NCBI GenBank assembly: GCA_963755305.1
Contig: CAVWJL010000011.1
Coordinates: 14,034 to 78,033 of the forward strand
Length of the DNA stretch: 64,000 nt
Source: an uncultured Alphaproteobacteria bacterium
Lineage (GTDB): Bacteria; Pseudomonadota; Alphaproteobacteria; Rhizobiales; Xanthobacteraceae
Reading direction: 5' to 3'
The notes under the pieces are model-generated. The model saw nothing but the letters and a program-made list of their open reading frames with translations. It was not told the DNA's origin and ran no database searches. Of the stretch, positions 3,986-49,209 are shown piece by piece (position 1 is the stretch's first letter; every line of letters starts with the position of its first letter). Position numbers and translations under genes: made by a program.

Positions 3986-4273
3986 GGGCTGCAAGCGATC
4001 CACTTGGGACGAGTTGTTGAGGCCAGCCTAACGGGCGTGGATGACGGTATCAATCCGGCCAGGCGAAAATGCCAGTTGGCCTGATGTCTGCTTCCGGTTT
4101 TGGTTGTGCAAAAACGCCTTGGCCGAAGCATTGACACTGGGCGATCCCGTGCGCGGGGGCCGAGCGCAGTGATTTTCCCGAGTTTGTGGTTTTTGTTCTG
4201 GAATCGCGGCCGATTGGGATACTGGCCGTCCTGGGCTGTTCTGCAACGGGATACGGGCGGATGTCGGCGGCGG

Positions 4274-5294
4274 TTATGCCCTGATCGCGGCCATGAGCGG
4301 CCGGACGCCGATGATGTTCAAGACGCGCGTCATATTGTAGGCCAGCACGTGGAGCGCCATCTCGGTGGCGACGCGCGGCAGCGTCTTCATCAGGAAGTGG
4401 GTTGCACCCATCCGGGCCTTGATCGTGCCGAACGGATGCTCGACCGTCTCGCGCCGCTGACGCATCTTCTCCGGGTGCTCATCGAGCCGGCGCTGCACCG
4501 CTTCGAGAACATGCTCATGCTCCCATCGGGTGATGCGCCGCTCCTTGCCGCTGGTGCAAGTCTGCTTGATGGCGCAGCTCTGACAGACGTTGGTCCAGTA
4601 GCGGCGCAGGACCAAGCCATGCTCTTCGTTCGTGTAGTGGTAGGCGAGCCTTTCGCCGGCCGGACAGATGTAGATGTCTTCCTCCGCGAAGTAGCGGAAG
4701 TCCTGTTTGCCGAAACGGCCTTTGGCAATGATGCCCGAGGTCATCGGCTTGGGCAGAGTAACCGTGATGCCGGCATTCTCGCAGGCCAGGATTTCCTCGC
4801 TGCTGAAGTAGCCACGGTCAGCAACCGCATCGAGGTTCTCCACTTCCAGCGTCGCCTTGGCCTGCTTGGCCACGGACGAGAGCTGTGAACGGTCGCGTCC
4901 CGACGTTGGTCACCTCATGCGTGACGATCAGATGATGCGTGGTGTCCACAGCGACCTGGACTTTATAGCCTACGACACCGGAGCCTCGGCCGCTGGTCGC
5001 CATTGAGCGGGCATCCGGATCGGTCAACGATATCTGCTGGCCGGGGTGGCGAGCATTTCCACCTTGAGAACCTGGAGACGCCGCATCTGTTCCTTCAGCT
5101 TCTCGATCTTCTCTTTCAGGCGGTCCGTCTTGGTCTTGAGCAACTCGGACGGCTCCTGCCGGTCGGCGCTGTCGAGCTGCTACAGATAGCGCGCGACGCT
5201 CTCCTCGATCTGCGCCATGCGCCGATCCATCTTGGGGGCTTCCAAACCGGGTTGAGGGCACGTTCGGCCACGCTACGTCATAGTTATTACGCAA
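4274..5294 (-). pseudogene. IS1182-family transposase gene, 5'-truncated, with a frameshift and an internal stop
   Basis: ORF 4274-4873 carries the DDE C-terminal part (AVADRGYFSSEEILACENAGITV...ETVEHPFGTIKARMGATHFLMKTL). The preceding part (SLTDPDARSMATSGRGSGVVGYKVQVAVDTTHHLIVTHEVTN) is in another frame, with the shift near 4885. Further upstream the coiled-coil segment (ESVARYL-stop-QLDSADRQE, KIEKLKEQMRRLQ) has an in-frame TAG near 5180. Confidence 0.8.
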
Positions 5295-5303
5295 GCCGCG
5301 TCG

Positions 5304-5744
5304 TCAGTCAGCTCGTGCGGTCGCCCCGAAGTCTCGAAGGCGTTCGGCATCTTCGATTATCTGCCGATGGTCGAATGCGATCGGCACACTCCGCCAATCG
5401 CTCACGAATTCGACGGCAGCAGCGTCCGAGCCAGCGCGTGGGTCGGCCGCAAGGTCGACGCTTCCCAGGAAGACCACCGAGATAAAATGCCCGCGCGGGT
5501 CGCGGGCGGGGTCGGAGTATACGCCGACGAGCCGCAAGTCTCGGATGTCTAGCCCGGTCTCCTCACGCACCTCTCGTCGGCAAGCCGTCTCGACTGTCTC
5601 GCCGTAGTCAATCTTCCCGCCAGGCAGCGCCCACGTCCCCTGGAACGGCGAACGGCTCCGTCTCACGAGGAGGACACTCCCCGCCCTGCCGAACAGGACA
5701 CAGTCGACTGTCAGGACCGGTTGCAGTGTTCCCTCCGCGCACAT
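5304..5744 (-). CDS. NUDIX hydrolase (ADP-ribose-pyrophosphatase-like)
   Basis: The Nudix box GGKIDYGETVETACRREVREETGL is present, and the C-terminal IAFDHRQII motif is typical of ADPR-type Nudix proteins. I place the start at the ATG at 5744 (MCAEGTLQPV), because the longer ORF would overlap the divergent gene. Confidence 0.8.
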   Translation of the reverse strand: MCAEGTLQPVLTVDCVLFGRAGSVLLVRRSRSPFQGTWALPGGKIDYGETVETACRREVREETGLDIRDLRLVGVYSDPARDPRGHFISVVFLGSVDLAADPRAGSDAAAVEFVSDWRSVPIAFDHRQIIEDAERLRDFGATARAD

Positions 5745-5811
5745 GCTTCGTTTGGCGGTGTATAGCGAGCAACGTTGCCGAGCAACATATCTCGTGTGTA
5801 GGATACGCGGA

Positions 5812-8800
5812 ATGCCCCAAACAACCCCAGTTGCGCCGATGACGCGGCTATTCCCCGCAAACGATCCCAAAACCTCGAATATCGAGCTGCTCGAAGCACT
5901 GCTTGCCGTCCCGTCGGCGGCCACATCGCCGAGCCACGCACTCCTCGAGGCGATCGCCGCTTACGCCAGGCACCACCCCGAGCGGACCATTCTGGTCCGG
6001 CGGCAGCTCGACAGTGTCGTGCTGATCAAGCATGGGCAACAACTCGACGATGTTTACGTGCTTATCGAGGGTCAACTCGCCGTCTACGGTGATGGCAGTA
6101 GGCTGCTCGCCCGGCTTGGGGCGCCGGCCCTCGTCGGCGAGATCGCACGCCAAGCTGGTGGTGCGACAGCTACGGTGGAGGTTGATTTGGACGGGGCCAC
6201 CGTGCTGGTGCTCTCGCAAGCGGACTTCGAGGCAGTGAAGTCAGAGATTCCCGGGACCTCGGAACACTATAGAAACCTTGTCACTGGCCGGCTGATCGAC
6301 CAACTTGCGGACGGCGGTGTCGTCACGCCGCTGATTGCTCGAGGGCTCCTTCGCCTGGCAGGCGAAGTCGGTGCGAGTTCGCCGCAGCAGGCGATCCTGG
6401 AGAAGATTACTGAAGACATACTGCTGACGCGGCCGGACATCTTGCGGTGGAGACGTTATGGGCCAGGGGAGACACTTATTGTGGAGGGAGAGCCGCTGGA
6501 TGCGGTGTCGATCATCGTCCGCGGAACCGCTCTGATCCGTAAAGCTTATCGTTCGGACATAACGATCGGGCCGGGGACACTGCTTGGTGAGATGTCCGCG
6601 CTGAGCGGACGTCTCCCCACCGCTACCGTCGTGGCCGGGCCTGAGCCGATTGAGGTGCTCCATCTCTCCCGCCTCGATTTTCAGCATCAGGTGCTCACTG
6701 ACGCCCGCGCCCGCGTGGCAGTGCGAGAACTCGCACTCCACCGCCTTCGCGAACAATACGAAGCGGAGCGTCTGGACCCGGGCACAGAGGAGCGGCTGCG
6801 CATTGTGCGCGACCAGAACACCGATGCGCTGATCCGCCGGCAGGGGCTTCGTGTCATTGCCGGGAACGGCGTGTTCCGGATTCTGAACCCTCACGGCGGT
6901 GCCATCGAAATCGATGGCACCCATGTCGAGGCTGTTGACCAGAAGTACGCATTGTTAGCGGCAGCGGAGAAGATGCTGAAGTGCGGCCGGTCGATCGCCG
7001 AGGTTCTTGAAGCAGCTGCATACGTCCGCCAGCAGGTAGAATCCCACAAGCCGCGCGCTGCGGACGATGTGGTTCAGAAGGCGATCGTTGCGTTCGTAGA
7101 GTACGCGGCGCACTCGGACTCGATGTATTCGGATCAGGTAATGGAGCTTAAACCCGCCGAGCACGGCGCGCCGCATTTTGCTCTGCTCGTCGAACGAATA
7201 AAACGGATCCGCTGGCTCGAGCAGAAACTTCGGAAGGATCCATTGATCATCGAACAGCAACGGCTCAAGGAACGAGCGCTCGGGGATCATGTGCGCTCAG
7301 TCGCACTGGCGGGTGATCCAATCCAAGCTCTCGACGATGAGTTTCGAACCCTGATGGAGCTGGGGATTCGCCAGGGTTCGGAGCAATTGTTTGGTGAGCT
7401 GAGCACCGTGATGTTCGAGAAGGTGCCGTTCGAGATCCATGAGTTCGACACGCGGGCGCTCGACCCTCCCGCAATTGATGCTTCGGACGAGAACCCCTGC
7501 GCACAGAATTACGGCGTGCTTGGCGAGCTACGCCTTAGGCTCGCGCGTGGCGAGGCTTCCGCAATTGGGGGCCCAGCGTACCCGCAACAGCGTTTCAGTA
7601 AAGCGGTGCTAGACGCCGTCGCATGCGGGGAGATTGGTGTCGTCGTCTACGACGGTGACCCAGACGAAGCCGAACGCTACGTCCGCCGCCAGTATACCAA
7701 GGACCCTCTCACCGGGACGGTATGGCACGGGCTCACGACGAAGATCCAGGGACTCGATGGCTCGGGACCGCGGACCCTTCTCACCGTGAAGAAGTCTCGC
7801 GGCGCGACGACGCAATATCTGATTATCGCGGGCTACGGTGCGTCCCGGCAGCTTCACAATGCCGGTGCAATTTTGCTCCACCACGACGATGAGCAGAGGC
7901 GGGTGCCGGAGGACCGGCTGGAACTCGCGACCCAAAACTACGATTACGTAGGTCGAAGCCGCGATGACGTCCTCCGCGCACTTGCCGCACAGGTCGCAGC
8001 CTGGAAAGATAAAGAGATCCTACGTCACACAATTCGGGACGTGGAATCGCTCCCGATTCAGCTCCTTATCCTTCAGAACCCGCTGGAGTTGCTCGAGGCG
8101 TTCGGCCAGGACGCAGTAGTGCTCGAGCGGTCCAAGGACGCCCTCTTCCGTTTTTACACCGGCTTCGTCCTGGTTGGTAACCAACTCGTTCGCCTCGTCG
8201 TGCCCAAGGTCGGTGGCGACGGTCTCTACGGCGACACTGCGGGGTTATTCGTTAGCGGCGTGTTCACCGCCGGCATTGCGCGGCTTCTCCCGCACGTCAT
8301 CTTCAATGGCACGGCCGGCGGCTTTGCCTACACCGCGGGCACGCCGGAATTCGAGGGAGCCCGCGGACTCGGCGAGATCAAGCCGGGCGGAATCATCATC
8401 CCCTTGGAGACAATTGAGCAAATTGACGACGGTTCCGGACCTGCGCGCATGCGTACTCTGTTTTGCAGGAGGGACGATACGCCCGAGGCGGCGTTGGCGC
8501 GGATGCTGCGCGACATCGGTGTTGTCGAACCCATTTCGGTGAACTTCACCAGCCACCACGCGGCGGTGGCCGCACCGGCGGTCGAGACTTACGACTACAT
8601 CGAGGAAAAGCTACTCCGATCACAGAAGGCGTCGGTGGACGTGGAGGGCGGGCAGATTTGGAAAGCAGTTGGCGCACTCGGCCGCGGCGACGTCACGTTC
8701 ACACCGGTCTACACACACTCCGACGATCCGCGAAGCAGCGAAGGGAACCCGGCTGACAGCCTTGCAGCGATGGGTCCATGGTTCGAGGGGATCGAGATCG

Positions 8801-8883
8801 ATGTGCGGAAGTACGATATCATCCGAGCCTTGCTCCACTGTTCGGTTAGCAGCCTCCTAACCGCAAGTCCCGCCCAGCTTTAG
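5812..8883 (+). CDS. Large multidomain protein: 2 x cyclic-nucleotide-binding (CAP_ED) domains, a ~450-aa unknown region, and a C-terminal nucleoside-phosphorylase (PNP_UDP_1)-like domain
   Basis: This is an uninterrupted 1,046-codon ORF (5743-8883). I prefer the ATG at 5812, preceded by AGGA.
- CAP_ED 1 (~5920-6240): VYVLIEGQLAVYGDG...LVGEIARQAGGATATVEV.
- CAP_ED 2 (~6385-6700): LIVEGEPLDAVSIIVRGTALIRK...LLGEMSALSGRLPTATVVA.
- C-terminus (~8190-8830): VVPKVGGDGLYGD...VIFNGTAGGFA...IKPGGIIIPLE...SVDVEGGQIWKAV...TPVYTHSDDP. This follows the strand/GTAGG/E-x-E-G/SD pattern of MTA/AMP nucleosidase-type phosphorylases. Confidence 0.75.
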   Translation: MPQTTPVAPMTRLFPANDPKTSNIELLEALLAVPSAATSPSHALLEAIAAYARHHPERTILVRRQLDSVVLIKHGQQLDDVYVLIEGQLAVYGDGSRLLARLGAPALVGEIARQAGGATATVEVDLDGATVLVLSQADFEAVKSEIPGTSEHYRNLVTGRLIDQLADGGVVTPLIARGLLRLAGEVGASSPQQAILEKITEDILLTRPDILRWRRYGPGETLIVEGEPLDAVSIIVRGTALIRKAYRSDITIGPGTLLGEMSALSGRLPTATVVAGPEPIEVLHLSRLDFQHQVLTDARARVAVRELALHRLREQYEAERLDPGTEERLRIVRDQNTDALIRRQGLRVIAGNGVFRILNPHGGAIEIDGTHVEAVDQKYALLAAAEKMLKCGRSIAEVLEAAAYVRQQVESHKPRAADDVVQKAIVAFVEYAAHSDSMYSDQVMELKPAEHGAPHFALLVERIKRIRWLEQKLRKDPLIIEQQRLKERALGDHVRSVALAGDPIQALDDEFRTLMELGIRQGSEQLFGELSTVMFEKVPFEIHEFDTRALDPPAIDASDENPCAQNYGVLGELRLRLARGEASAIGGPAYPQQRFSKAVLDAVACGEIGVVVYDGDPDEAERYVRRQYTKDPLTGTVWHGLTTKIQGLDGSGPRTLLTVKKSRGATTQYLIIAGYGASRQLHNAGAILLHHDDEQRRVPEDRLELATQNYDYVGRSRDDVLRALAAQVAAWKDKEILRHTIRDVESLPIQLLILQNPLELLEAFGQDAVVLERSKDALFRFYTGFVLVGNQLVRLVVPKVGGDGLYGDTAGLFVSGVFTAGIARLLPHVIFNGTAGGFAYTAGTPEFEGARGLGEIKPGGIIIPLETIEQIDDGSGPARMRTLFCRRDDTPEAALARMLRDIGVVEPISVNFTSHHAAVAAPAVETYDYIEEKLLRSQKASVDVEGGQIWKAVGALGRGDVTFTPVYTHSDDPRSSEGNPADSLAAMGPWFEGIEIDVRKYDIIRALLHCSVSSLLTASPAQL

Positions 8884-8938
8884 CACATAACTGGTTGGCT
8901 CTCGTGCCGGCATAACGGCCGGCGGCCATGTCCGTCCA

Positions 8939-9097
8939 GTGCTGGAGGTCGCGGACATCTTCCGCGCCCACGGGGCGGCGTGGCGCAAAGCCAATGCCGG
9001 GCAGGCACGCGTGTGGCTTTCCTCGCGCGAGGCCGACCTGCTTCCGGTTGCGTACTTCCATGTGGTGTTCACGCTGCCAGCGGCCATCGCCAAACCT
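8939..9097 (+). pseudogene. IS91-family transposase fragment
   Basis: LEVADIFRAHGAAWRKANAGQ...LLPVAYFHVVFTLPAAIA resembles two short blocks of IS91/Y1-type transposases joined by a deletion. The fragment is cut at ~9097 by the next element. Confidence 0.55.
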
Positions 9098-9543
9098 CGA
9101 ATCATCCTGCGCTACGAACTCACCGTTCATGAATGGGCCGCCATCAAGCCATTCCTACCGACCAAGTCGCGCGGCGTGCCGCTTGTAAATGACGGGCGCG
9201 TGCTGAACGGCATCTTTTGGGTGCTGCGTTCGGGTGCGCCGTGGCGCAATCGCGTACACTACCTCTACAATCGCTTCGTTCGCTGGCGACGGGGGGCGTC
9301 TGGGGCGGGATTATGAACGCGCTGGCCGCCACCCATGACGCGGCCGTACAAATGATCGATACGTCGATTATCCGCGTGCATCAGCACGCCGCCTGCATCG
9401 CGCGGAACAAAAGACAATTTATGAGCCTATCACGCGGCGGTTTGACCAGCGAGATTCATGCGGTGGTCGATATCAACGGCCTGCCGATCCGGCTCGCGCT
9501 TACAACAGGTGAGGCGCGTGACAACCGGCTCGCAGGAGGTTAG
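9098..9543 (+). pseudogene. IS5-family (IS427/IS1031-like) transposase fragment with an internal deletion, a frameshift and a 3' truncation
   Basis: LRYELTVHEWAAIKPFLPTKSRGVPLVNDGRVLNGIFWVLRSGAPWRN, then in another frame NALAATHDAAVQMIDTSIIRVHQHAACIARNK...GGLTSEIHAVVDINGLPIRLALTTGEARDNRLAG. It is collinear with the intact copy at 11074-11835 but lacks the C-terminal third. Confidence 0.7.
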
Positions 9544-9905
9544 GGACACACGACCACATTACGTACGCGCCAACCATAATCATCAGAAAATTGCACGCGG
9601 TGCACTTGGCAATCGGGATTGAAATCTGGATCGTAGGCAGGGTCGGCGCCTACCGCGACCGCGCCCCAACCCAAGCTCGGCTGTCGTCGGGCCAATTCGG
9701 TACCCCGGCGGACCGCCCCGGCGCGCCAACCGTGAGCCCTGCCACGTCCTGCAAACCCACCATGGCGCTGGCTTGCGAAAGGTGCGCTGTGGGAACCCTT
9801 GCCGATGGAAGCGCCGCGCGCACGCGCGGTGGCGGAATCCGGCATAACGTGCGACGTGCCGATCGCAACAGCCACAGCGACCATTGCAAGTTTCAGATTA
9901 CCCAT
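9540..9905 (-). CDS. Hypothetical exported protein
   Basis: The internal start MGNLKLAMVAVAVAIGTSHV gives a signal-peptide-like N-terminus. The body is Gly/Arg-rich and the tail is Cys-containing (DCQVHRVQFSDDYGWRVRNVVVCP). I recognise no family. Confidence 0.4.
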   Translation of the reverse strand: MGNLKLAMVAVAVAIGTSHVMPDSATARARGASIGKGSHSAPFASQRHGGFAGRGRAHGWRAGAVRRGTELARRQPSLGWGAVAVGADPAYDPDFNPDCQVHRVQFSDDYGWRVRNVVVCP

Positions 9906-10466
9906 ACTGACTTTTCTCGATACTTCGACAACCCTCGGCGGCGCCGGGGTCGCGCCTGTCACTGTTCCGGGATTATGGTGGGCACAGACGGAGACGATCT
10001 ATCCCGCCGATATTTTCCGGCTGCTGACGCATCCTAAATGGGTGGTATTGCGCGCCGCCAGCACATTGTCTCGGTAACCTAAATACTGACCTCGCCTTCA
10101 TCTGGATTTTGCATCGATCCGGTTAGCGAAAAGCGCATTTCGATGCTCCCGGCTGCGACTCTGCCTTGTCCGGCGGCCGATCGAACAGCGCTTGTTTCCA
10201 GCAGCATGATCCGACCATTTGGGGGCGTGCCTTTGGCGGGCAACGGCCGTTTCGCAAATGCCGATTGGATTAATGACCCATGTCGCTAGCAACGTCCAAA
10301 AACGACACCACGCTCAGTGGGTCGATCCCTGGTCAACCGTCACTGAGAGATTCGGCGGTAGCTCAGGTGGGTTATCGGTGGGAGCTGCTTCGCCGAATGA
10401 CGCTTCGATCCGACAGCGAGTGAATTGCCACGTCGCCGCGAAGTGATGCGATGGGCCAACAACCGA

Positions 10467-10871
10467 CTACGCAGAAGGCGCGTCAAGGCCGTGCGGCAGT
10501 AAAACCTGTATAACATTTTGCCCTTCCGGTGGATGGCGCGAGATATGCCCTTTCCCATGCGTATCCTCGACTAGAACCGCCTTTCCAGCGGAGACACGTC
10601 TCATCTCTCCGTCGCTCGTTTCAAACTCGACCTCGCCATCCAACCAAATGGCAAGGAGTCGACCCGGTGGGTTATGAAAGTCCGCTTCGCGCGCCCCTGC
10701 AGGGATATGAACAAAACGAACTCGCGAGGCTTCGTAGAAAGCGGAACGCGAGGATTCGTAGTTAGCGGCAGGCGCTCCATTCGGAAACGATCGCGTTAGT
10801 GTCGTGGGGATATCAACTTCCCCAAAATGGGATTCGCCATCAGGCGTAGCGAAAATGCGCAGGCACTTCAT
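10467..10871 (-). CDS. Cupin-domain protein
   Basis: This is a 134-aa ORF. HNPPGRLLAIWLDGEVEFETSDGEMRRVSAGKAVLVEDTHGKGH shows a cupin beta-barrel pattern. Confidence 0.6.
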   Translation of the reverse strand: MKCLRIFATPDGESHFGEVDIPTTLTRSFPNGAPAANYESSRSAFYEASRVRFVHIPAGAREADFHNPPGRLLAIWLDGEVEFETSDGEMRRVSAGKAVLVEDTHGKGHISRHPPEGQNVIQVLLPHGLDAPSA

Positions 10872-11061
10872 CTTTTTACCTCCATTGTACTTTCGAGGTT
10901 ATTATGAAGGAGCGAGCCGTGTCGGGAAGGGTCATTTTCGACCGATTCCGGCGGAGATTTGTCGGCCGGTCGATGTTCGCTTTGCCCCAAAGCGCCCGGT
11001 GCCGGGGTCGGCCAAGGGGCATTGTGCTTGGCCTTACGCCTGTGATTCAAGCTCCCAAACA

Positions 11062-11845
11062 GGGGCTCGAATCATGCGCTATGAACTCGCCGACTATGAA
11101 TGGACCGCCATCAAGCCGATGCTGCCGAACAAGCCGCGTGGCGTTCCTCGGGTAAACGACCGTCGTGTCCTCAATGGCATCTTCTGGGTCTTGCGATCTG
11201 GAGCACCCTGGCGTGATCTGCCGGAGGCGTTTGGCCCGTACACCACTTGCTACAACCGCTTCGTTCGCTGGCGGCGGGCTGGTGTCTGGAGCCGCATCAT
11301 AGACGCACTTGCCGCTGCCCATGATGCCGCTGTCCAGATGATCGACACCTCCATTGTCCGCGTGCATCAGCATGGAGCATGCATCACAAGGAACCAGCGC
11401 CAATCGATGGGAAGGTCACGCGGCGGGTTGACGAGCAAAATTCATGCGGTGGTCGATAGCAATGGTCTGCCGGTACGGCTGGCGTTGAGCCCCGGTGAGG
11501 CCCACGACGTTCGACTTGCCGGAAAACTGCTGTCTCGTCTGAAATCCGGATCAATGCTGCTTGCCGACCGTGGCTATGACGCCGACTGGATCAGAGAGCT
11601 TGCCATGAAGAAGGGCGCGTGGGCCAACATCCCGCCGAAAAGCAATCGCAGCGATCCGATCTGCTTCAGCCCTTATCTCTACCGCGCCCGCAACCGGGTC
11701 GAGCGGTTCTTCAACCGGATCAAACAATGTCGTCGGGTTGCGACGCGCTACGACAGGCTTGCCGCCAACTACCTTGCCTTCGTCCAGCTTGCATCAATCA
11801 GGCTATGGCTGCGCGTTAATGAGTCCGCGCCCTAGTGTTGCACTT
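11062..11845 (+). mobile_element. IS5-family insertion sequence (apparently intact copy); boundaries approximate
   Basis: The left end is inferred from where the three copies in the window become alignable: GGGCTCGAATC-ATG at 11062, CTCGAATCAT at ~9098, and GGGCTCGAGTC-ATG on the minus strand at ~25795. The right end is not resolved, and I could not identify the inverted repeats with confidence. Confidence 0.5.
11074..11835 (+). CDS. IS5-family (IS427/IS1031 group) DDE transposase
   Basis: This is the internal ATG of ORF 10804-11835. The product reads MRYELADYEWTAIKPMLPNKPRGVPRVNDRRVLNGIFWVLRSGAPWRDLPEAFGPYTTCYNRFVRWRRAGVW...LADRGYDADWIRE...RNRVERFFNRIKQCRRVATRYDRLAANYLAFVQLASIRLWL, a textbook DDE_Tnp_1 protein. 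Confidence 0.85.
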   Translation: MRYELADYEWTAIKPMLPNKPRGVPRVNDRRVLNGIFWVLRSGAPWRDLPEAFGPYTTCYNRFVRWRRAGVWSRIIDALAAAHDAAVQMIDTSIVRVHQHGACITRNQRQSMGRSRGGLTSKIHAVVDSNGLPVRLALSPGEAHDVRLAGKLLSRLKSGSMLLADRGYDADWIRELAMKKGAWANIPPKSNRSDPICFSPYLYRARNRVERFFNRIKQCRRVATRYDRLAANYLAFVQLASIRLWLRVNESAP

Positions 11846-12599: not shown

Positions 12600-13370
12600 T
12601 CACGTTCCAAACAATTCTTTCCGAACCTTTGTTGCCGAAATCTGTTCGGTTGACTCATCGAGCACTAGCCGCTCGACGGCATATCCGACCTCGCGCCCAT
12701 AGAACACGTTCGTGATGTTTGGAACTGGCACGATGACAATACGCCCCCGATACTGCCAAAGCGCGGATTCGATGCGCGCTTTTACTTCGTGAAAAGATAA
12801 CGGATTACTGTCATTCGTGTGGTGCGTATCGCGAATTGCGATACAGACCTGTCCGACGCGCCGCAATCCTTCTTCGATCAGTTTCTTGTGCCCATCATGA
12901 AATGGCTGGTAGCGGCCGAGGAAGAGCGCCGTCGGTGCCTGGGGGTCGAACTTCGGAAGCAGCTTCTCGCATACTTTTTCCGCCCAGTAGCTCGGGGACC
13001 CTTGTGCCTCGACGCGAATATCGTAGCGATGCGGCGGCTCGAACATTTGATTGGTGTCCGCAAATCGGGATGTCTGGACGCGATCCAGCCAAACGATGAA
13101 AGCATCGCCAAATGCAGCCCGAGTGTCTTCGGTCGGGCAGACAAAGTCCGCAATGGCACAAGCGCCAGCCTCGACCACTCGGTCGCACAGCCACCCCATG
13201 CGGCGAGCCTGCTCGATGCGATCGGCGACGCTGAAACCGAGGTCCTTGTTTAAATTGGCCCGCACCGCATCGGCATTGAAATGGACGGCGTTCAAGCGCG
13301 GTGCAAGGGCTGTTGCCAACGTTGTCTTGCCGGCTCCCGGCAAGCCCATCAGCAGCAGTTTTCTGGTCAT
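12600..13370 (-). CDS. Fusion protein: N-terminal adenylylsulfate (APS)-kinase-like P-loop domain + C-terminal cytidylyltransferase-like (HxGH) nucleotidyltransferase domain
   Basis: The N-terminus reads LLLMGLPGAGKTTLATAL...NADAVRANLNKDLGFSVADRIEQARRMG, which gives a P-loop plus the LGFS/DR motif of CysC-type kinases. The C-terminus reads ALFLGRYQPFHDGHKKLIEEGL...ISATKVRKEL, which gives the (T/H)xGH and ISxT motifs of the CTP_transf_like family. Confidence 0.7.
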   Translation of the reverse strand: MTRKLLLMGLPGAGKTTLATALAPRLNAVHFNADAVRANLNKDLGFSVADRIEQARRMGWLCDRVVEAGACAIADFVCPTEDTRAAFGDAFIVWLDRVQTSRFADTNQMFEPPHRYDIRVEAQGSPSYWAEKVCEKLLPKFDPQAPTALFLGRYQPFHDGHKKLIEEGLRRVGQVCIAIRDTHHTNDSNPLSFHEVKARIESALWQYRGRIVIVPVPNITNVFYGREVGYAVERLVLDESTEQISATKVRKELFGT

Positions 13371-30241: not shown

Positions 30242-31900
<1,659 letters not shown>

Positions 31901-39051: not shown

Positions 39052-40167
39052 ATGTATGCTCGTGTGCATTTTTTCTTTGCCCTCACGGCAGCATTGTTAA
39101 CTTCGCCCGCTCATGCGGAGCGTACGACGCCGTGGAACACCTGCACCGGCGAGTCGGATGTCGAACAGAAACTCAAGAGCTGCACCGCGATCATCAATTC
39201 GAAAAAGGAGACGCGGGCCAGACTTGCAATCGCCTACAACAACCGCGGCAAGGCCTGGAACAAAAAGGGCGAGTTCGCCCGTGCCATCGCCGACTACACG
39301 GAGGCGATCCGGCTCGATCCGAGCCTGGCCGACGCCTATTTTAACCGCGGCGTCGCCTATTACTACAACCAGGAGCTAAGCGGCGCCATCGCTGATTTCT
39401 CGGACGCGATCCGGCTCGATCCCAATCACGCCGAGGCGTATTTCTACCGCGCCATGGCTTGGCACTTCAAAAACGACATTGACCGTGCCATCGCCGATGT
39501 CACGGAGGCGATCCGGATCGCGCCGAATTGGCCGGATGCGTATACGTACCGCGGTGACATTTGGTACCAAAAGCGCGAGTTCGACCGCGCCATCGCGGAC
39601 TATTCGGAAGCGATCCGACTCGACCCAAAAAACGCTGATGTTTATCGCGATCGGGGGAAGGTCTGGTTTGACAAGGACGAGTTCGCCCGTGCCATCGCCG
39701 ACTACACGGAGGCGATCCGGCTCGCACCGGACAATGGCGACCACCACGCCGATCGGGGTTTTGCCCATTTCTGCCTGGGCGACTTTCCCGCGTCGGCGGC
39801 CGATCTTAAACATGCCCTCGAAGTGAAGCTTGGTGGCTTCAAGAAGTTGCACGTTGCGTTGTTCCGCTTTATCGCACGCACCCGCGCCGGTCAGGACGCG
39901 ACGCCGGAGCTGGCAGCGTATTATGCGGGGTTCAAGTTGCCCGACCCCGTCTTCGAACTCTATCTCGGCCGCAGCGCGCCAGAGGCTGCGCTCGACAGGC
40001 CTCGCGACCACTGTGAAGCGGAGTTTTACGTCGGGCAGTGGCACCTCATTCGCGGCAGCCGCGACCAGGCGCGGACACATTTGCAGTCGGCGGCCGTCGA
40101 CGGATGCAGCGTCGTTGTGCCCCACCATGCGGCCGCTGTCGCTGAGTTGAAGCGAATGACGCCGTGA
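39052..40167 (+). CDS. Secreted TPR-repeat protein
   Basis: The signal peptide is MYARVHFFFALTAALLTSPAHA. Six or more 34-aa units follow the form A(I/Y)xxRGxxWxxKxEFxRAIADYTEAIRLDPxxADAY. Confidence 0.8.
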   Translation: MYARVHFFFALTAALLTSPAHAERTTPWNTCTGESDVEQKLKSCTAIINSKKETRARLAIAYNNRGKAWNKKGEFARAIADYTEAIRLDPSLADAYFNRGVAYYYNQELSGAIADFSDAIRLDPNHAEAYFYRAMAWHFKNDIDRAIADVTEAIRIAPNWPDAYTYRGDIWYQKREFDRAIADYSEAIRLDPKNADVYRDRGKVWFDKDEFARAIADYTEAIRLAPDNGDHHADRGFAHFCLGDFPASAADLKHALEVKLGGFKKLHVALFRFIARTRAGQDATPELAAYYAGFKLPDPVFELYLGRSAPEAALDRPRDHCEAEFYVGQWHLIRGSRDQARTHLQSAAVDGCSVVVPHHAAAVAELKRMTP

Positions 40168-40219
40168 GACAGCATCATCATCGGTTGCGTTGTCAAATGC
40201 GGGCAACGGAGAGGTTAAC

Positions 40220-41194
40220 ATGCGGCGGCGCGATCTCTTCAAAGTCATTGCTGCATCAGCAGCCGCGTGGCCAGTCACTGCCGGTGCGCAGCAATTACTC
40301 TCCCCCGGCCGCTTGATCCGCACCTTCACAGGGCATTCGGACCTTGTCAGCTCTGTCGCGTTCTCGCCGGATGGCCGCACCGCGCTGTCAGGCAGCGAAG
40401 ACAGGACGCTCAAGCTGTGGGAGGTGGCGACCGGCAAGGGACTCCGCACTTTCAGTGGGCATACGAAGCCAGTGCTTTCGGTCGCATTCTCACCCGATGG
40501 CCGCACGGCGCTGTCAGGCAGCAAAGACAAGACCTTCAGGCAGTGGGAGGTGAGTACAGGCAAGACATTGCGAACCTTCACGGGGCATTCGGAATTTGTC
40601 AGGTCCGTCGCGTTCTCGCCGGATGGCCGCACCGCGCTATCAGGCAGCGAAGACAGAACGATCAAGCTGTGGGACGTGGCGACGGGCAGCGAGTTGCGCA
40701 CCTTCGGGGAGCACGAGGGATCGGTCACTTCGATTGCATTTTCGCCCGATGGCCGCGCCGCGCTGTCAGGCAGCGAAGACAGGACGCTCAAGCTGTGGGA
40801 GGTCGCGACCGGCGAGGAACTCCGCACTTTCAGAGGACATAGGGAGGAGGTGTTTTCGGTCGTATTCTCACCCGATGGGCGCACCGCGCTGTCGGGCGCT
40901 CTCGACCGGACGATCAGACTATGGGAGCTGGCGACCGGCAACGAACTCCGCACTTTCAGGGAGGACGCGGAGTGGATCACTTCGGTCGTATTTTCACCCG
41001 ACGGCCGTACCGCGCTGTCCTGCGCCCTCCGCACGACGTTTAGGCTGTGGGAGGTAGCGACTGGCAAAGACCTGCACATCTTCCGAGGACATACTGACTC
41101 AGTCTGGTCGGCCAAATTCTCACCCGATGGGCGCACGGCTCTGTCCGGCAGCGTCGACAAGACGCTCAAGCTGTGGGACTTGACCGCGCTGTGA
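40220..41194 (+). CDS. WD40 beta-propeller protein with a twin-arginine signal
   Basis: The ATG at 40220 is preceded by [30 protein letters not shown] is a Tat motif. Seven near-identical 42-aa WD units follow ([41 protein letters not shown]). Confidence 0.85.
   Translation: [324 protein letters not shown]
40310..41190 (+). repeat. Seven tandem 126-bp coding repeats (highly internally conserved WD40 units)
   Basis: The repeat is visible at the nucleotide level, e.g. GCGTTCTCGCCGGATGGCCGCACCGCGCT(G/A)TCAGGCAGCGAAGACAG recurs. These repeats generate the long spurious antisense ORF at 39376-41415. Confidence 0.9.
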
Positions 41195-41641
41195 AGCGGT
41201 GTGTCGGAAAAGTCGCTCTTGGGCCCATCGCGACATTTCGCGGCGTCGCAGCAATTCGATCGCTTTCGGAGCGAGCGGACATCAGCGGCGGTTTGCAGCA
41301 CCGGGGTTATGAGTACGCGCCCCAGTAACGCGCCTTGTGATTTGGCAAACCCGATTGCATGATCCGCAAGTTCATCAGGGACCTGGTATTGCGGTCTGCC
41401 GGAACACCCGCGCACTTCTCACGACATCTGACAGTGCCAGCCAACCCCAACTCTCTGGGCGATGGCTGAGTGCTGTGAGCGGCACAGACACACTCCGTTT
41501 GCTTTATTGCGCGAGGGTTCCCGCAGGGCTCCGTGTTCGCGCGCGATCTGCGTGAGCCTACTACGGTCACCCTTGTCGATCCGACGGCGCCGGCGCTACC
41601 GCATTCAAGCGCAGCATAGTTAACCGATTTGGCGGTGCCCT

Positions 41642-44062
41642 CTAGGGCATTAACGTGCGGACGACTTCCACATGACGTCCGACCCACAACTCTCCACCGG
41701 AGTGATTTTTGTGTCGCCATGCCGAGGAACCAAGCGACTTGGCAGCATGCCGCAAAAGGTAGGTTCCCACTTCGTCGAACCGTATTGCCCTTGAGAACAA
41801 GAAGCCCTGTACGATATCGCAATCGAGCTCGCGTAGCATTGCGAGTTGCGCTTCGTCCTCGACGCCTTCCGCCACTACCGCTTTTCCAAGACTGTGGGAC
41901 AGACGCACGATGGCGTCGATGATCGATCGACTTTCTGGGTCCGTCATGATGCTCCCAACAAATGACCGGTCGATCTTGATTTTCGTAACCGGCAGCAATT
42001 TAAGGTGGGCAAGGGAGGCAAAACCAGTACCGAAATCATCAAGCGAAATCAAAACTCCGTAACCGGCCAAAATATTCAGATTGCGTTTAATCGTGACAAT
42101 ATTGTCATCAAGCGCGGCTGTTTCGGTTACCTCAATCTCTAAGTTTCCGGGATTGATGCCATTTTCTTGCAGCATTGCGATCACACGTTCAGCATAGTCC
42201 TCTGCGCGAAGATCGACATTCGTCACGTTGATTGCGATCCTGTTCACATTCAGTCCGGCCGCAAGCCATGCTTTCATATCGGAGATGACCTTCTCCATCA
42301 TGCGCCAGCCGAATTCGCGCCCTACTTCCATATCTTCGAGCGCGGACATGAACTCCGCCGGCATGCATTGGCGCCCATCGTCCAGCACGATGCGGGAGAG
42401 GGCTTCAAATCCAACGACCTCGCCAGTCTCAACGGCGATCTCGGGCTGATAGAATGGAGTGACCCGGTCCATTTCTATTGCGGACCGCAATGTCTCAAGC
42501 ACCAGAAACCTGTTCTCGACCTCGATCTGCATGGCCGGCTCGAACACCACAACGCGATTGCGGCCGGATTGTTTTGCGCGATAGAGCGCGAGATCGGCTG
42601 CGCGAAAAACGCCACTCCAATTTGTCGCATGATCAGGGAAGCAAGCGATCCCGACGCTCGCGGATATTTCGATGGCATGACCCCGATAGTCCACTTTTCG
42701 TCGCATGGCGCGCAGGATACGAACACCTGTCGCTTCGGCCTCTTGTCGCGTTGGCATGTCGCGCAAAACAACCGCAAATTCGTCGCCGCCGAGTCGGGCA
42801 ACAACCTGGGCTCTACGTGACATTCTCTGGATTCGTTTGGCGGCGGTACGTAGTACGAGGTCGCCAGCTTCGTGGCCAAGCGTGTCATTGATGAATTTGA
42901 AATTGTCGAGATCAATCAACAGCGCTGCAAATCGTTGGCTGCGAGTAGTGTGCGGTTCTGCGATGATCGCACTTACCACTTCGTGCAACCTGTTCCGGTT
43001 TGGCAGCTTGGTCAGCAAATCATAGTTGGCAGCCTCCCAAAGGTTGTCCCTAGCGCGCAGCAGTCGAATTTGGCGCCTCACGATCATTGTAGAGAAGATC
43101 AGGACAAGACAACTCACGAAAGTCGCCACGCTGTAATGAATCATCCGTCGCTGGCCCGCGCCTGCCAGCACTTCGGCTCGGGCGAAGCCTACCGCGACGA
43201 CGAGCGGATATCCCTTGACACGGCGATAGCTCGAAATGCGTGAGACACCGTCTCGCCGCCCATCGGTGAGGAATGAACCGGAACTCGCCAGCGCGAGCTG
43301 CCGAAATAGCGCGCCCGACGTAATTGACTGGCCAATGGTTCGATCACCGGAAGACACCCGAGCGCGGACGATTCCATCCAATCCAGCCAGCAACACCATG
43401 CCCTTCTTACGAACGTCAATCGATCCGTAGAAATTGGCCAGGTAGTATGGGTCAATCGCCACCAGGATAACGCCGGAAAATGTACCGTCAGCAGCGATGA
43501 TGCGGCGGCTCAGTTGAATGGACCACTTGCCACTGACCCGCCCGAACACTGGTTTGCTGATGAACAGTTCGTCCCCATCAGTATCGATGTGCACACGGAA
43601 ATGCTCGCGATCGCTCAGGTCCATTGGGGCCTTCGGCATTCCGAGAGTGGTAGCTGCCAGCATTCCTTCCTTGTTGATGATCACAATTTGAAGCGATACG
43701 TCAGCCACGAACTTCTGGACATGGGCCCATTGCATCAGATCGAACCGATCTGGGTCTGCCGCGAAGGATGCACGGGCGAAAAGCAAGATCTGATCGTGTG
43801 CCTGGATCAATCGAATGATGTTCTCTTCAAAGACGAGTGCAAGGTTAGCAGTGTCGTTGTAAGCAGCAGCCTCGGTCCGTCGGGCGTCTTCGCTGGCCAT
43901 ATACCATGCGCCAGACCATATTATTCCGACCGCGAATCCTGCGAGGAAGATGCTGCCCCGAGCGCCGGTATTGAATGCTCGCTTTGTGAAGCTGATAAAG
44001 CCGGCAGCGCCGGCGCGAACCCGTTGAATAAATGTTTCCAACCACAGATGAATCTGACGCAT
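41642..44062 (-). CDS. Membrane sensor diguanylate cyclase/phosphodiesterase (Cache-like periplasmic domain + GGDEF + EAL)
   Basis: This is an 806-aa ORF with two TM segments flanking a ~280-aa periplasmic domain. The GGDEF domain has RLGGDEFAVVL. The EAL domain has FYQPEI, EALSRI, EVTETA, DDFGTGFASLAHLK and AEGVE...QGFLFS. Confidence 0.9.
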   Translation of the reverse strand: MRQIHLWLETFIQRVRAGAAGFISFTKRAFNTGARGSIFLAGFAVGIIWSGAWYMASEDARRTEAAAYNDTANLALVFEENIIRLIQAHDQILLFARASFAADPDRFDLMQWAHVQKFVADVSLQIVIINKEGMLAATTLGMPKAPMDLSDREHFRVHIDTDGDELFISKPVFGRVSGKWSIQLSRRIIAADGTFSGVILVAIDPYYLANFYGSIDVRKKGMVLLAGLDGIVRARVSSGDRTIGQSITSGALFRQLALASSGSFLTDGRRDGVSRISSYRRVKGYPLVVAVGFARAEVLAGAGQRRMIHYSVATFVSCLVLIFSTMIVRRQIRLLRARDNLWEAANYDLLTKLPNRNRLHEVVSAIIAEPHTTRSQRFAALLIDLDNFKFINDTLGHEAGDLVLRTAAKRIQRMSRRAQVVARLGGDEFAVVLRDMPTRQEAEATGVRILRAMRRKVDYRGHAIEISASVGIACFPDHATNWSGVFRAADLALYRAKQSGRNRVVVFEPAMQIEVENRFLVLETLRSAIEMDRVTPFYQPEIAVETGEVVGFEALSRIVLDDGRQCMPAEFMSALEDMEVGREFGWRMMEKVISDMKAWLAAGLNVNRIAINVTNVDLRAEDYAERVIAMLQENGINPGNLEIEVTETAALDDNIVTIKRNLNILAGYGVLISLDDFGTGFASLAHLKLLPVTKIKIDRSFVGSIMTDPESRSIIDAIVRLSHSLGKAVVAEGVEDEAQLAMLRELDCDIVQGFLFSRAIRFDEVGTYLLRHAAKSLGSSAWRHKNHSGGELWVGRHVEVVRTLMP

Positions 44063-46499: not shown

Positions 46500-46637
46500 T
46501 CCTGAACGTTCTAATTTCGCGCGCGTTCTACATTAATCGTCCACGCACCCGAAAAATTGTAGGATCAATTGGGGGCAATGCTTGCGCACCCGAGGCGTAT
46601 TTATTCCTTAGGTGCCAATCCTCCCGAGGATGTCTCG

Positions 46638-49209
46638 ATGAGCACTACTGTTGATGCCGTACTTGACGACCGGCAGCCAAAGGCCAAGGTCTTCATTTCC
46701 TACTCGCGCAAGGATATGGCCTTTGCCGACCAGCTTGAAGCGGCGCTGACGGCGCGCGGTATCGACGCGCTCATAGACCGCAGCGAAATCTATGCCTTCG
46801 AAGACTGGTGGAAACGTATCGAAGTCCTGATCGCGCGAGCAGATACGGTCGTATTCGTGCTCAGTCCCGATGCGGTCGCGTCCGAGGTGGCGCTGAAGGA
46901 GCTTGCCTACGCAACTGCGCTGAACAAGCGCTTCGCGCCGATTGTCTACCGGCGGGTCGATGCCAACGCGGTGCCTGAGGCATTGCGGCGCCTCAATTTC
47001 ATTTTTTTTGATGACGCTGCTCGGACTGACGCCAACGAAAATCAACTTGTCGAAGCTCTGCAGACCGACATCGACTGGATTAGAAGACACACAGAATTCG
47101 GCGAGGTGTCGCGGCGTTGGACAGCGGCCGGTCGCCCACGGGGGCTGCTCCTACGGACGCCGCTCCTGGAAGAGGCCGAGCGATGGATAGCTGTTCGTCC
47201 CGAAAGTGCACCGGCGGCTACGGAAGAAACGCAGATCTTTATTGCAGAAAGTCGGAAGGGTGCGCTGCGCCGGCGGAATATTCTTACCGGAAGCCTAGCG
47301 ACAGGGTTGATGGTCGCTCTCGTCCTTGCCGGGCTCGCCTATTGGCAGCGTGGGATCGCAATAGAGCAGCAAGGAATAGCGCTCGCCGAGCGCGACAAGG
47401 CAACGCACAGCTTCAATCTTGCGCAACAAACCGCCGATAGCCTGGTGGTCGATATTGCGCGCGGCCTGCGAAATGTGCACGGCATGAGCGCCGAATCGGT
47501 CCGCAAGATTCTTCGAAACCGCAAGGGCGACTTTCGAGCAGCTCGCAGCCTCTGCGCCCGACAATCTCGCTCTGCAGCGAAGCCGCTCTGTAATGCTCGA
47601 CGAATTCGGCGAGACCTTCGAGACGCTCGGCGACCTCGAGGAGGCTCTCAAGGCCTACCGCGACAGCCTCGCCATCAGAAAGCGGCTCGCCGGCACCGAT
47701 CTCAGCAATACACAATGGCAGCGCGATCTGTCGGTGTCGTATGGCAGGATCGGCGAAGCGCTGGTGCGAAGGGGCAAGCTCGAGGAGGCTTTCAAGGCCT
47801 ACCGCGAAAGCCTCGCCATCGCGGAACGTCTCGCCGGCGCCGATCCCAGCAATGCACAATGGCAGCGCGACCTGTCGGTGTCGTATGACAAAATTGGTGA
47901 TGTGCTGGTGCGGCAAGGCAAGCTCGAGGAGGCGGTCAAGAGTTATCGCGCCGGCCTCGGGATCAAGGAGCGCCTGACCGCCGCCGATCGGGGCAACACC
48001 GAGTGGCAGCGCGATCTGTCGTTGTCCTACATCAGCCTCGGCGAAGTTCTGGTAAGGCAAGGCAAGCTCGAGGAGGCGCTTAGGGTCTACAGCGGCAGCC
48101 TCGCCATCAGGGAGCGCCTCGCTGCCGCCGAACCCGGCAATACCGAGTGGCAAAGCGATTTAACGGTCTCGTACAACAACATCGGTGACGTGCTGGTACG
48201 GCAGGGCAAGCTCGAGCGGGCGCTCAAAGCCTTCCGCGACGGCCTCGCGATCGCGGAGCGCCTCGCCGCCGGCGATCGCAGCAATACGCAATGGCAGCGC
48301 GATCTGTCGGTTTCATACGAGAAGGTCGGCAACGTGCTGGTACGGCAGGGTAAGCTGGAGGAAGCGCTCAAGGCCTACCGCGACGGCCTCGCGATCGCCG
48401 AGCGCCTGGCCGTCGTGGATCGCAACAATGCTGAGTGGCAGAACGATCTGGCGCTGTCTTACGAGAAGCTCGGCGACGTGCTGGTACGGCAGGATAAGAT
48501 CGATGAGGCGCTCAAGGCCTATCGTGACAGCCTAACCATCGCCGAGCGCCTTGTCGCCGCCGATCCCAGCAATAGCGAGGCACAGCGCGATTTGTCGGTG
48601 TCGTATAACAAGATCGGCGACGTGCTGGTACGGCAGGGCAATCTAGACGAGGCGTTCAAGGTGTATCGCGACAGCCTCGCTATCAGGGAGCGCCTCGCCG
48701 TCGCCGATCGCAGCAACGCCGAGTGGCAGCGCGATCTGTCGGTGTCGTACGGGAAGCTCGGTGATGTGTTGGTGGCGCAAGGCAAGCTGGAGGACGCGCT
48801 CAAAGCCTACCGCGACGGCCTCGCCATTGCACTGCAACTCGCCGCGACCGACCGTAGCAATGCCGAGTGGCGAAATGACCTTCAGATCAGCATCGGCAGG
48901 GTCGGCAGTATGGCTTACCGCTTTGTCCTGGGGAATGATTTCGCGAAAGCTCTTGAAGTCGCGGACCAAGCCATCTCCCTCGCGCCCGACGCGGTATGGC
49001 TCTACACCAACCGCGCCCACGCGCTCATGTTCCTCGGCCGTGGGGGCGAAGCGCGTGCGCTCTATCTTCAGTATCGCGGTGAGAACAATGTGCAGAGTGG
49101 AAGGTCCTGGGACAAGATTATAATCGAGGACTTCGCCAAGATGCGAAAGGCGGGGCTTACACATCCGCTAATGGAAGAGATCGAGACAAGGCTTGCGGCA
49201 GGGGGATGA
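46638..49209 (+). pseudogene. TIR-domain / single-TM / TPR-array protein, split by a 1-nt frameshift near 47510 (or an assembly indel)
   Basis: The TIR domain reads KVFISYSRKDMAFADQLEAALTARGIDALIDRSEI...ADTVVFVLSPDAVASEVALKELAY. A post-TIR helix follows (DIDWIRRHTEFGEVSRRW...LLLRTPLLEEAERW), then a TM segment (ILTGSLATGLMVALVLAGLAYW). ORF 46569-47888 loses homology after SVRKIL. The protein continues in the frame of ORF 47593-49209 (ETARATFEQLAASAPDNLALQRSRSVMLDEFGE...) with ~9 TPR-like 48-aa units. Confidence 0.8.
47590..48900 (+). repeat. ~9 tandem 144-bp coding repeats (48-aa TPR-pair units, highly internally conserved)
   Basis: The unit is SN(T/A)(E/Q)WQRDLSVSYxKIGDVLVRQGKLEEALKAYRDSLAIAERLAAADP. 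Nine copies of the WQRDL(S/A)(V/L)SY core can be counted in the ORF translation. Confidence 0.9.

Follow-up and report, generated by a model that had tools for sequence, protein, structure and literature searches.

The stretch of DNA analysed here, referred to as the window, comprises 64,000 nucleotides of a contig from an uncultured Alphaproteobacteria bacterium, and this report concerns a pair of divergent genes found at its positions 5304 to 8883. One of them encodes a NUDIX hydrolase, and the other a protein of 1,023 aa in which two cyclic-nucleotide-binding (CNB) domains are followed by a region of about 425-450 residues lacking recognisable relatives and by a C-terminal domain resembling the nucleoside phosphorylase fold PNP_UDP_1. 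The plus-strand open reading frame (ORF) of the large protein extended from 5743 to 8883 with no interruption over 3.1 kb. Its product, starting at the ATG at 5812, was identical to an independently called protein of a public collection (P0001), and the NUDIX product was likewise identical to an independently called protein (P0071); therefore, the two start codons are separated by 67 bp, a distance that was read directly from the sequence. An earlier note on this DNA, prepared from the letters alone, had described the uninterrupted frame, a 67-bp divergent promoter region shared by both genes, and the order CNB-CNB, unrecognised region and PNP fold. The frame and the spacing were borne out, as was the domain order by Pfam, AlphaFold2 (AF2) and Foldseek; within the 67 bp, a scan for the sigma-70 consensus gave no match and a promoter and terminator scan was uninformative. 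The genes and domains of the pair are as follows.

5304-5744 (coding 5307-5744, plus the stop codon), minus strand: NUDIX hydrolase gene, 146 aa (Pfam NUDIX, PF00293, E 1.9e-27; exact match to P0071)
5745-5811, no strand: divergent intergenic region of 67 bp
5812-8883 (stop included), plus strand: large multidomain gene, 1,023 aa (exact match to P0001; AF2 pLDDT 92.4, pTM 0.87)
5878-6315, plus strand: first CNB domain, CNB-A, residues ~23-168 (Pfam, PADLOC PycTIR CNB model, AF2 secondary structure, analysis of the phosphate-binding cassette)
6328-6759, plus strand: second CNB domain, CNB-B, residues ~173-316 (Pfam; HMMER alignment to PKA RIalpha GEIALLMNRPRAATV)
6769-7401, plus strand: all-helical domain, residues ~320-530 (AF2; conserved RxxRDQN, LNP and RxRWLE motifs; no PDB fold match)
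7489-8046, plus strand: alpha/beta domain without a recognised fold, residues ~560-745 (AF2 pLDDT >90; best Foldseek match in PDB at E 0.17; no Pfam match)
8047-8862, plus strand: domain assigned to a diverged PNP_UDP_1 fold, residues ~746-1017 (best viral Foldseek match, Pfam PF01048 match of the relative P0064, alignments, conservation)

The division of the large protein follows the AF2 model, which was built on a 46-sequence alignment and in which the PNP-like domain appears as the second of two alpha/beta domains. The assignment of this C-terminal domain was not obtained from profile searches of the window protein itself. At E<=0.1 the Pfam scan of both proteins of the pair detected nothing except the CNB and NUDIX domains, the NCBIfam and PADLOC models matched the large protein through its CNB domains only, and the C-terminal 700 aa had no match among PDB chains, either as a single sequence or as profiles of 2 and 12 sequences. 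Foldseek matches of the full-length model in PDB were tandem CNB structures only, and uninformative for the C-terminus. When the model was compared with a viral library containing few CNB proteins (BFVD), a nucleoside phosphorylase of Pithovirus ranked first (probability 1.00, E 6.4e-5, template modelling (TM) score 0.55 on the target). In addition, the most remote family member, P0064, passed the PF01048 gathering score (32.9 bits vs 25.1), with a match covering the part that corresponds to FNGTAGG...PGGIIIP in the window protein (GTAGG/VGD). PF01048 was matched by two of the 41 family members scanned (E<=0.001), P0064 among them, and judged from sequence the membership of the window protein would be transitive only.

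The motifs of the domain were PKVGGxGLYGDTAG, FNGTAGGF (residues 831-838, nt 8302-8325), PGG-IIP (as IKPGGIIIP, nt 8377-8403), HxxVxAPAxET, SVDVEGG with E945 (residues 941-947, nt 8632-8652) and HSDDP with D971 (residues 969-973; THSDDPRS, nt 8713-8736), and these coordinates agree with the places at which four C-terminal motifs had been reported before. In an hhalign comparison with the E. coli MTA/SAH nucleosidase (MTAN), whose query sequence was checked against 1JYS, SVDVEGG paired with AVEMEAT and HSDDP with ISDVAD, so that E945 and D971 occupy what we take to be the positions of MTAN Glu174 and Asp197. The Glu and Asp of MTAN serve in ribose binding and purine protonation. E945 and D971 were conserved in at least 85-90% of the family, and so were A835, G836, H916, P922, E925, T926, D943 and S970; nowhere in the family is conservation higher than at the acidic pair equivalent to that of MTAN and in the substrate-loop motifs, which argues for catalysis. 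The G-[ST]-A-G-G loop, the [DE]-x-E ribose motif and the S-D Asp were all present in the window protein. The residue N833 lies in its N-G-T-A-G-G loop as the Asn does in NTGSAGG of MTAN, and a phosphate-binding Arg, presumably represented at this position by R87 of E. coli DeoD, is absent there. Since N833 replaces the DeoD-type arginine, as in MTAN, the sequence mildly favours hydrolysis over phosphorolysis.

By structure search the domain shares the alpha/beta fold of the MTAN (MtnN)/PNP_UDP_1 superfamily, and the order of its motifs matches that of MTAN (NGTAGG with NTGSAGG, PGGIIIP with VGDIVVS, DVE with EME, and SDD with SD). It differs from MTAN in a longer glycine-rich loop (KVGGDGLYGDTAG), in the HxxVxAPAxET segment that the family has instead of SGDxF, and in being embedded behind about 425 extra conserved residues and the CNB pair. 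AMP nucleosidase (Amn), which frees adenine from a nucleotide, has its PNP-superfamily catalytic domain after a large regulatory region; in contrast, the window protein had neither an AMNp_N nor a PNP_UDP_1 Pfam match, and its regulatory region consists of the middle region of unrecognised fold and the CNB domains. The structure match, the P0064 match, the motif alignment and the conserved E945 and D971 together support a very diverged PNP_UDP_1 fold. The phosphorylase fold that had been suggested before is thus upheld by structure, by a remote relative and by conservation, but not by a direct profile match to the window protein.

The residues between the CNB pair and this domain, about 450 of which had been said to resemble nothing recognisable, indeed found no counterpart in Pfam or in the PDB fold search. 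A separate AF2 model of residues 320-765 was confident (pLDDT 92.1, pTM 0.89), and because its comparison with PDB by Foldseek gave nothing better than E 0.17, the middle region has no solved structural relative. Its alpha/beta domain (residues ~560-745) carries the near-invariant motifs GExSAxGGxxY...R, GLDGSGPR and GxGxSRQLHNA, and the middle region was as strongly conserved as the PNP-like domain, with invariant polar residues S583, Y590, R594 and R679. The best Foldseek matches of this region, to the STING receptor, and lower ones to the YopH phosphatase were regarded as noise (E >=0.17, probability <=0.25, TM <=0.30), and the idea that its alpha/beta domain is a degenerate PNP duplicate was rejected (hhalign probability <=0.5%).

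The last ~700 aa, comprising the helical, alpha/beta and PNP-like domains, are a conserved module without earlier description that also occurs with other N-termini. A word-indexed search recovered one relative only, the candidate list being saturated by CNB proteins. When 1.84 billion cluster representatives were scanned exhaustively with a HMMER profile of the module, 63 clusters emerged at E<=1e-3, 51 at E<=1e-10 and 38 at E<=1e-30. Most of these matches spanned the ~700-aa unit end to end, many of the proteins were 700-800 aa long and had no Pfam domain at all, and CNB domains were found in seven of the 41 members scanned. Among one genome per species (185,579 species) the module was found six times, always in metagenome-assembled genomes (MAGs), one from Actinomycetes, two from Thermoleophilia, one from a Myxococcota-type 'Deltaproteobacteria' and two from Bdellovibrionota; no member was found in the IMG/VR viral contigs. 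No publication describing this architecture was found, and the relatives bear in public collections just the name 'cyclic nucleotide-binding domain-containing protein'.

Some members of the family showed unusual settings. The module was also seen inside the giant proteins P0008 (4,616 aa) and P0023 (1,795 aa), with no other Pfam domain, and eukaryote-like features (an N-terminal MGC, low complexity, AT-rich coding sequence) were observed among P0008, P0023, P0016, P0018 and P0054; the family may extend to protists. In a Thermoleophilia MAG (L012:10128-12052) the homologue was split over two frames, with about 5 kb of extra sequence upstream in comparison with the syntenic locus L010, and is explained either by pseudogenisation or by a frameshift error of long-read sequencing.

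The two N-terminal CNB domains lie where they had been expected: Pfam cNMP_binding matched the protein in two stretches (E 6.9e-20), the best of them at residues 214-292 in CNB-B, and the full-length model matched in PDB the tandem CNB-A/B of PKG and of the PKA R subunit (E ~1e-12). In a canonical CNB domain the ribose 2'-OH and the cyclic phosphate are held in place by Gly-Glu and by an Arg ten positions after it; this cyclic-phosphate Arg corresponds to PKA RIalpha R209/R333 and PsPycTIR R97 (PMC10959531, PMC11224242). The Gly-Glu pair was retained in both CNB-A and CNB-B. In the cassette motif of CNB-A (GEIARQAGGATATV, nt 6136-6177) the position of the canonical Arg is occupied by Ala118, and in that of CNB-B (GEMSALSGRLPTATV, nt 6586-6630) by Pro270, as the HMMER pairing of GEMSALSGRLPTATVVA of CNB-B with GEIALLMNRPRAATVVA of PKA also places Pro270 on the Arg. 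In the closest relatives, P0002, P0003 and P0067, neither domain has the Arg. CNB-bearing relatives at a greater distance (Actinomycetota and others) kept it in CNB-A, as in GELSALTGHRTADL at the Actinomycetes locus L009, where an adjoining protein with MFS and CNB domains has a fully canonical cassette.

The activation by a cyclic nucleotide that had been proposed for the protein was therefore not borne out for the window clade, in which both domains lack the cyclic-phosphate Arg; for the same reason, its CNB pair may bind a ligand other than cAMP or cGMP. The ATATV-type cassette is conserved family-wide, so the ligand pocket is probably kept. A tandem of CNB domains without the cyclic-phosphate Arg is also present in the trypanosomatid PKA regulatory subunit, which was among the Foldseek matches, and the trypanosome protein, which has lost this Arg, binds inosine, guanosine and adenosine in place of cAMP (PMC10959531). 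A trypanosome-specific Glu at the PKA A202/A326 position is absent from the window protein, where the residues are Ala112 and Ser262, and nucleoside binding by its CNB pair would be suggested by analogy only.

The NUDIX box of the partner gene was intact (residues 43-64, G43-x5-E-x7-REVREETG). A link with the large protein was indicated by P0067, a 1,149-aa protein sharing 54% identity with the window protein, in which a NUDIX domain 60% identical to the window NUDIX is fused at the N-terminus. The same fusion protein was present in at least six independent contigs, indicating that it is real, and a functional link between the NUDIX and the large protein is supported by their adjacency in the window and their fusion in P0067. 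A tblastn search for the NUDIX across the loci gave matches in the window and at L005, the locus of the fusion, but nowhere else, and an unrelated NUDIX lay 8 kb away in L013; NUDIX as a general partner of the family was thus rejected. The best NCBIfam matches of the window NUDIX were partial, to ADP-ribose-binding NadM-Nudix and NtrR (~56 bits against cut-offs of 350-450), and its best PDB relative was 2yyh, an uncharacterised Aquifex NUDIX, so that 'ADP-ribose-pyrophosphatase-like' is no more than a plausible description of its sequence.

Two further observations touch the NUDIX. At L005:3-4072 a Popeye-domain gene (POPDC1-3, cAMP-binding-like) overlaps the start of the P0067 fusion gene by 4 nt, and the contig ends inside. 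In the window, a minus-strand ORF of 256 aa at 12600-13370, 4 kb past the insertion sequence (IS) remnants described below, combines a P-loop kinase domain (APS_kinase/AAA_33) with a partial cytidylyltransferase-like (NMNAT-type) domain, and is worth mentioning since the NUDIX partner resembles NadM-Nudix domains.

The neighbours of the family were varied and mostly housekeeping genes, several of them of nucleotide metabolism. In the Actinomycetes MAG (L009:7405-13647), a gene for an MFS-CNB transporter, the homologue with two CNB domains and the module, and an adenine deaminase gene (3nqb, E 7e-80) overlap on one strand, the transporter gene lying directly upstream of the homologue and the deaminase gene directly downstream. 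These three genes look like one operon, and the adenine deaminase, a neighbour at this single locus, suggests free adenine as a product. At L007:6850-8057 the genes ndk, DUF2905 and dcd (dCTP-deaminase family) lie on the same strand and end 6 bp before the homologue P0070, and in L020 purH lies 2 kb upstream of the homologue. Two candidate shared neighbours were set aside: a secreted HEAT-like protein of 252 aa, the sole neighbour shared between loci (L008 and L011), was taken as local synteny without a functional link, and small ORFs in L008 and L022 that overlap the gene at its 3' end were not homologous.

Our preferred interpretation, to which we give a probability of about 0.5, is that the large protein is a ligand-gated N-glycosidase of purine nucleotides or nucleosides, belonging to a family not described before and acting together with a NUDIX pyrophosphatase in nucleotide turnover. 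Binding of a ligand to the CNB pair would release or activate the catalytic module, which would cut a purine nucleotide or nucleoside, most likely one of adenine, between base and sugar and so free the base in the manner of AMP nucleosidase and MTAN. The NUDIX enzyme would either make the substrate, for instance by converting ADP-ribose or a dinucleotide to AMP, or clear a sugar-pyrophosphate product, and the role of the pair would be in the turnover or homeostasis of purine nucleotides and not in abortive infection. CNB-gated enzymes and PNP-superfamily nucleosidases are both known kinds, and the one part here without a known counterpart is the 425-residue middle region.

Several results count against this interpretation. 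As to the enzyme, the window protein had no PNP_UDP_1 (PF01048) match, the Foldseek support for the fold is one significant match, the hhalign probability against MTAN was only 12.7%, the equivalent of MTAN Glu12 is not conserved in the family, and the substrate named above is a guess. As to the partner, the window NUDIX belongs to a very abundant subfamily of stand-alone proteins of ~140 aa (6,942 matches at E<=1e-10, with identities of 60-66% among the top ones); many unlinked copies resemble it at least as closely (60-66%) as the fused one does (60%), and these stand-alone copies sit in ordinary neighbourhoods. The partnership proposed in the earlier note is backed by the fusion in P0067; near P0002 and P0003 no NUDIX was present. 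As to the context, an all-against-all BLAST of the flanking ORFs showed no neighbour common across lineages, the adenine deaminase, ndk-dcd and purH neighbours were found at one locus each, and a family that is rare, patchy and, in the window, flanked by IS elements would equally fit accessory or conflict genes.

If the preferred interpretation holds, it would add a PNP-fold enzyme family overlooked by profile surveys, nearly all of the scanned members falling below PF01048, together with about 425 conserved residues of confidently predicted fold without a solved relative. It would also provide a bacterial case of CNB domains controlling the cleavage of a nucleotide N-glycosidic bond. Within the family, CNB domains that keep the cyclic-phosphate arginine and others that lack it form a natural series useful for ligand-switching studies, and the fused and adjacent NUDIX enzymes provide a ready two-enzyme hypothesis.

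An unlikely alternative is that the protein is an orphan immune effector, in which a cyclic nucleotide produced elsewhere in the course of phage infection would occupy the CNB domains and thereby turn on a nucleosidase that depletes ATP or NAD, leading to abortive infection, with the NUDIX as modulator or antidote. The logic of CNB effectors and PNP effectors is known from Pycsar, from Cap17 of CBASS and from DtcC of Detocs (10.1101/2023.01.24.525353; PMC11224242). An N-terminal CNB domain with an enzymatic output is found in Pycsar effectors such as PycTIR, and also in the mycobacterial cAMP-regulated acetyltransferase Pat; CNB-A had its best score against the PycTIR CNB model (2e-14, residues 69-161). 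Two CNB domains are present here, however, in a tandem like that of PKA-R, there is no adjacent PycC-type cyclase, and the equivalent of PsPycTIR R97 is replaced in both (PMC11224242), leaving the window protein without a phosphate-clamping arginine, whereas the CNB-bearing Actinomycetota relatives keep the canonical one in CNB-A. A weak PADLOC match to PycC (5e-5) falls on CNB-B and not on a cyclase domain.

Cap17 and DtcC also place a PNP-superfamily domain on a signal-receiving domain, making nucleotide depletion a conceivable output (10.1101/2023.01.24.525353), but the window family shows no similarity to their PADLOC models and has no CD-NTase or two-component partner. None of the PNP-effector models of PADLOC-DB was matched by the window protein or by 46 family members, which had matches via CNB domains only, so the kinship with Cap17 and DtcC suggested by the earlier note was not confirmed. 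Absence from the defensive PNP clade is by itself uninformative, because the survey that defined this clade gathered its proteins by PF01048 (10.1101/2023.01.24.525353) and that profile, matched by only two of 41 relatives and not by the window protein, would have passed over most of the family; taken jointly, the lack of sequence similarity and of a fitting context still argues against a role like that of Cap17 or DtcC.

Regarding the context, neither the window nor about a dozen homologous loci had a cyclase, a CD-NTase or any recognised defence system next to the gene; that cyclase and CD-NTase are missing from the flanks in the window had been noted before. The scans of neighbours, which included L001-L022, showed no strong cyclase match, no CD-NTase and no Detocs kinase or other infection sensor; in one of them, a Pfam scan (shuffled-ORF), this covers the 25 best families out of 55. 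A single defence-like neighbour was seen, an AbiLi/AriA/PtuA-like ABC ATPase (PADLOC 7.7e-21) with a 164-aa partner, which lies at L022:3183-4777, 0.5 kb downstream of P0065, the homologue from Myxococcota. Rarity, patchy phyletic distribution and the IS elements around the window genes would suit an immune effector; on the other hand, the absence of relatives from viral contigs and the chiefly housekeeping and nucleotide-metabolism neighbourhoods speak against it, and across about a dozen loci the defence setting that had been envisaged was not found, the orthologues being largely devoid of any island or defence association. Should the defence reading be true after all, the protein would represent a new effector architecture.

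Less probable still is a reading in which the PNP-like domain sits in a signalling or scaffold protein and serves there as a phosphorylase or as a non-catalytic nucleoside binder, with the real activity residing in the middle region and the NUDIX present by coincidence. Such an explanation would agree with a middle region that has no known fold and is as conserved as the PNP-like domain, down to the invariant S583, Y590, R594 and R679, with a PNP-like domain too diverged for any profile match, and with a NUDIX drawn from a common housekeeping subfamily. It is at odds with the concentration of the strongest conservation of the family in the MTAN-equivalent acidic pair and the substrate loop, and with the fusion of a NUDIX of the same subfamily in P0067.

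A comparably doubtful proposal goes further than the N-glycosidase that we prefer, and sees in the ~700-aa module a new nucleotide-processing machine. The middle domains would act as a second ligand-binding or catalytic site, the Arg-less CNB domains of the window clade would sense a non-cyclic nucleoside or nucleotide, as in trypanosome PKA-R, and the module together with the NUDIX would make or destroy a signal derived from a base or a ribosyl phosphate. If true, this would be the first CNB switch in bacteria to sense nucleosides, and might amount to a new pathway of conflict or signalling.

The gene pair is bracketed by IS remnants, as the earlier note had indicated and NCBIfam profiles confirmed; a further IS5 element lies beyond them, outside the module.

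4274-5294, minus strand: dead IS1182-family transposase in two out-of-frame fragments (NCBIfam transpos_IS1182, 5.9e-49 over profile positions 300-487 and 9.5e-15 over 205-289, profile length 488; Pfam DDE_Tnp_1_6)
8939-9543, plus strand: IS91 and IS5 remnants, consisting of a 31-residue IS91 fragment (transpos_IS91, 4.1e-7; Pfam Zn_Tnp_IS91) and then two out-of-frame IS5 fragments (NCBIfam transpos_IS5_3, 1.4e-11 and 2.5e-16 over profile positions 2-70 and 68-156 of 258; Pfam DUF4096)
10804-11835, plus strand: apparently intact IS5-family transposase, given as context (NCBIfam transpos_IS5_3, 1.7e-90, full profile)

The IS1182 copy is dead because its N-terminal ~200 residues are missing. The G+C content was ~0.61-0.63 across 4000-10000, against 0.54-0.60 on either side, which is a weak hint of foreign origin, similar values being found elsewhere in the window. 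The groEL gene of the window, at 30254-31900, shares about 84% DNA identity with Bradyrhizobium groL, so that the host is probably an alphaproteobacterium resembling Bradyrhizobium. That the large gene is a decaying passenger in an IS graveyard, intact in sequence and functionless in its host, is highly improbable, for although both flanks hold dead IS copies and the L012 homologue appears frameshifted, its 3.1-kb frame is uninterrupted, all the family-invariant residues are retained and the AF2 model is confident throughout.

Other features were observed elsewhere in the window. At 46569-49209 (plus strand) the N-terminus of an ORF reads as TIR-like (KVFISYSRKD...), a candidate assignment for which a PDB sequence search gave no match, and this start is followed in another frame by a long TPR-like repeat array (QRDLSVSY.KIGDVLVRQGKLEEA). 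A minus-strand ORF of 679 aa at 39052-41415 consists mostly of a ~24-residue repeat (SHSL.VLSSLPDSAVRPSGENATE); because it overlaps two plus-strand ORFs, the DNA is described as a tandem repeat whose coding strand is ambiguous. Finally, the minus-strand ORF at 41642-44062 encodes an 806-aa membrane protein in whose translation GGDEF (RLGGDEFAVVL) and EAL-type motifs could be read, the predicted product being a c-di-GMP turnover protein and not a cyclase of the kind that makes cyclic mononucleotides.

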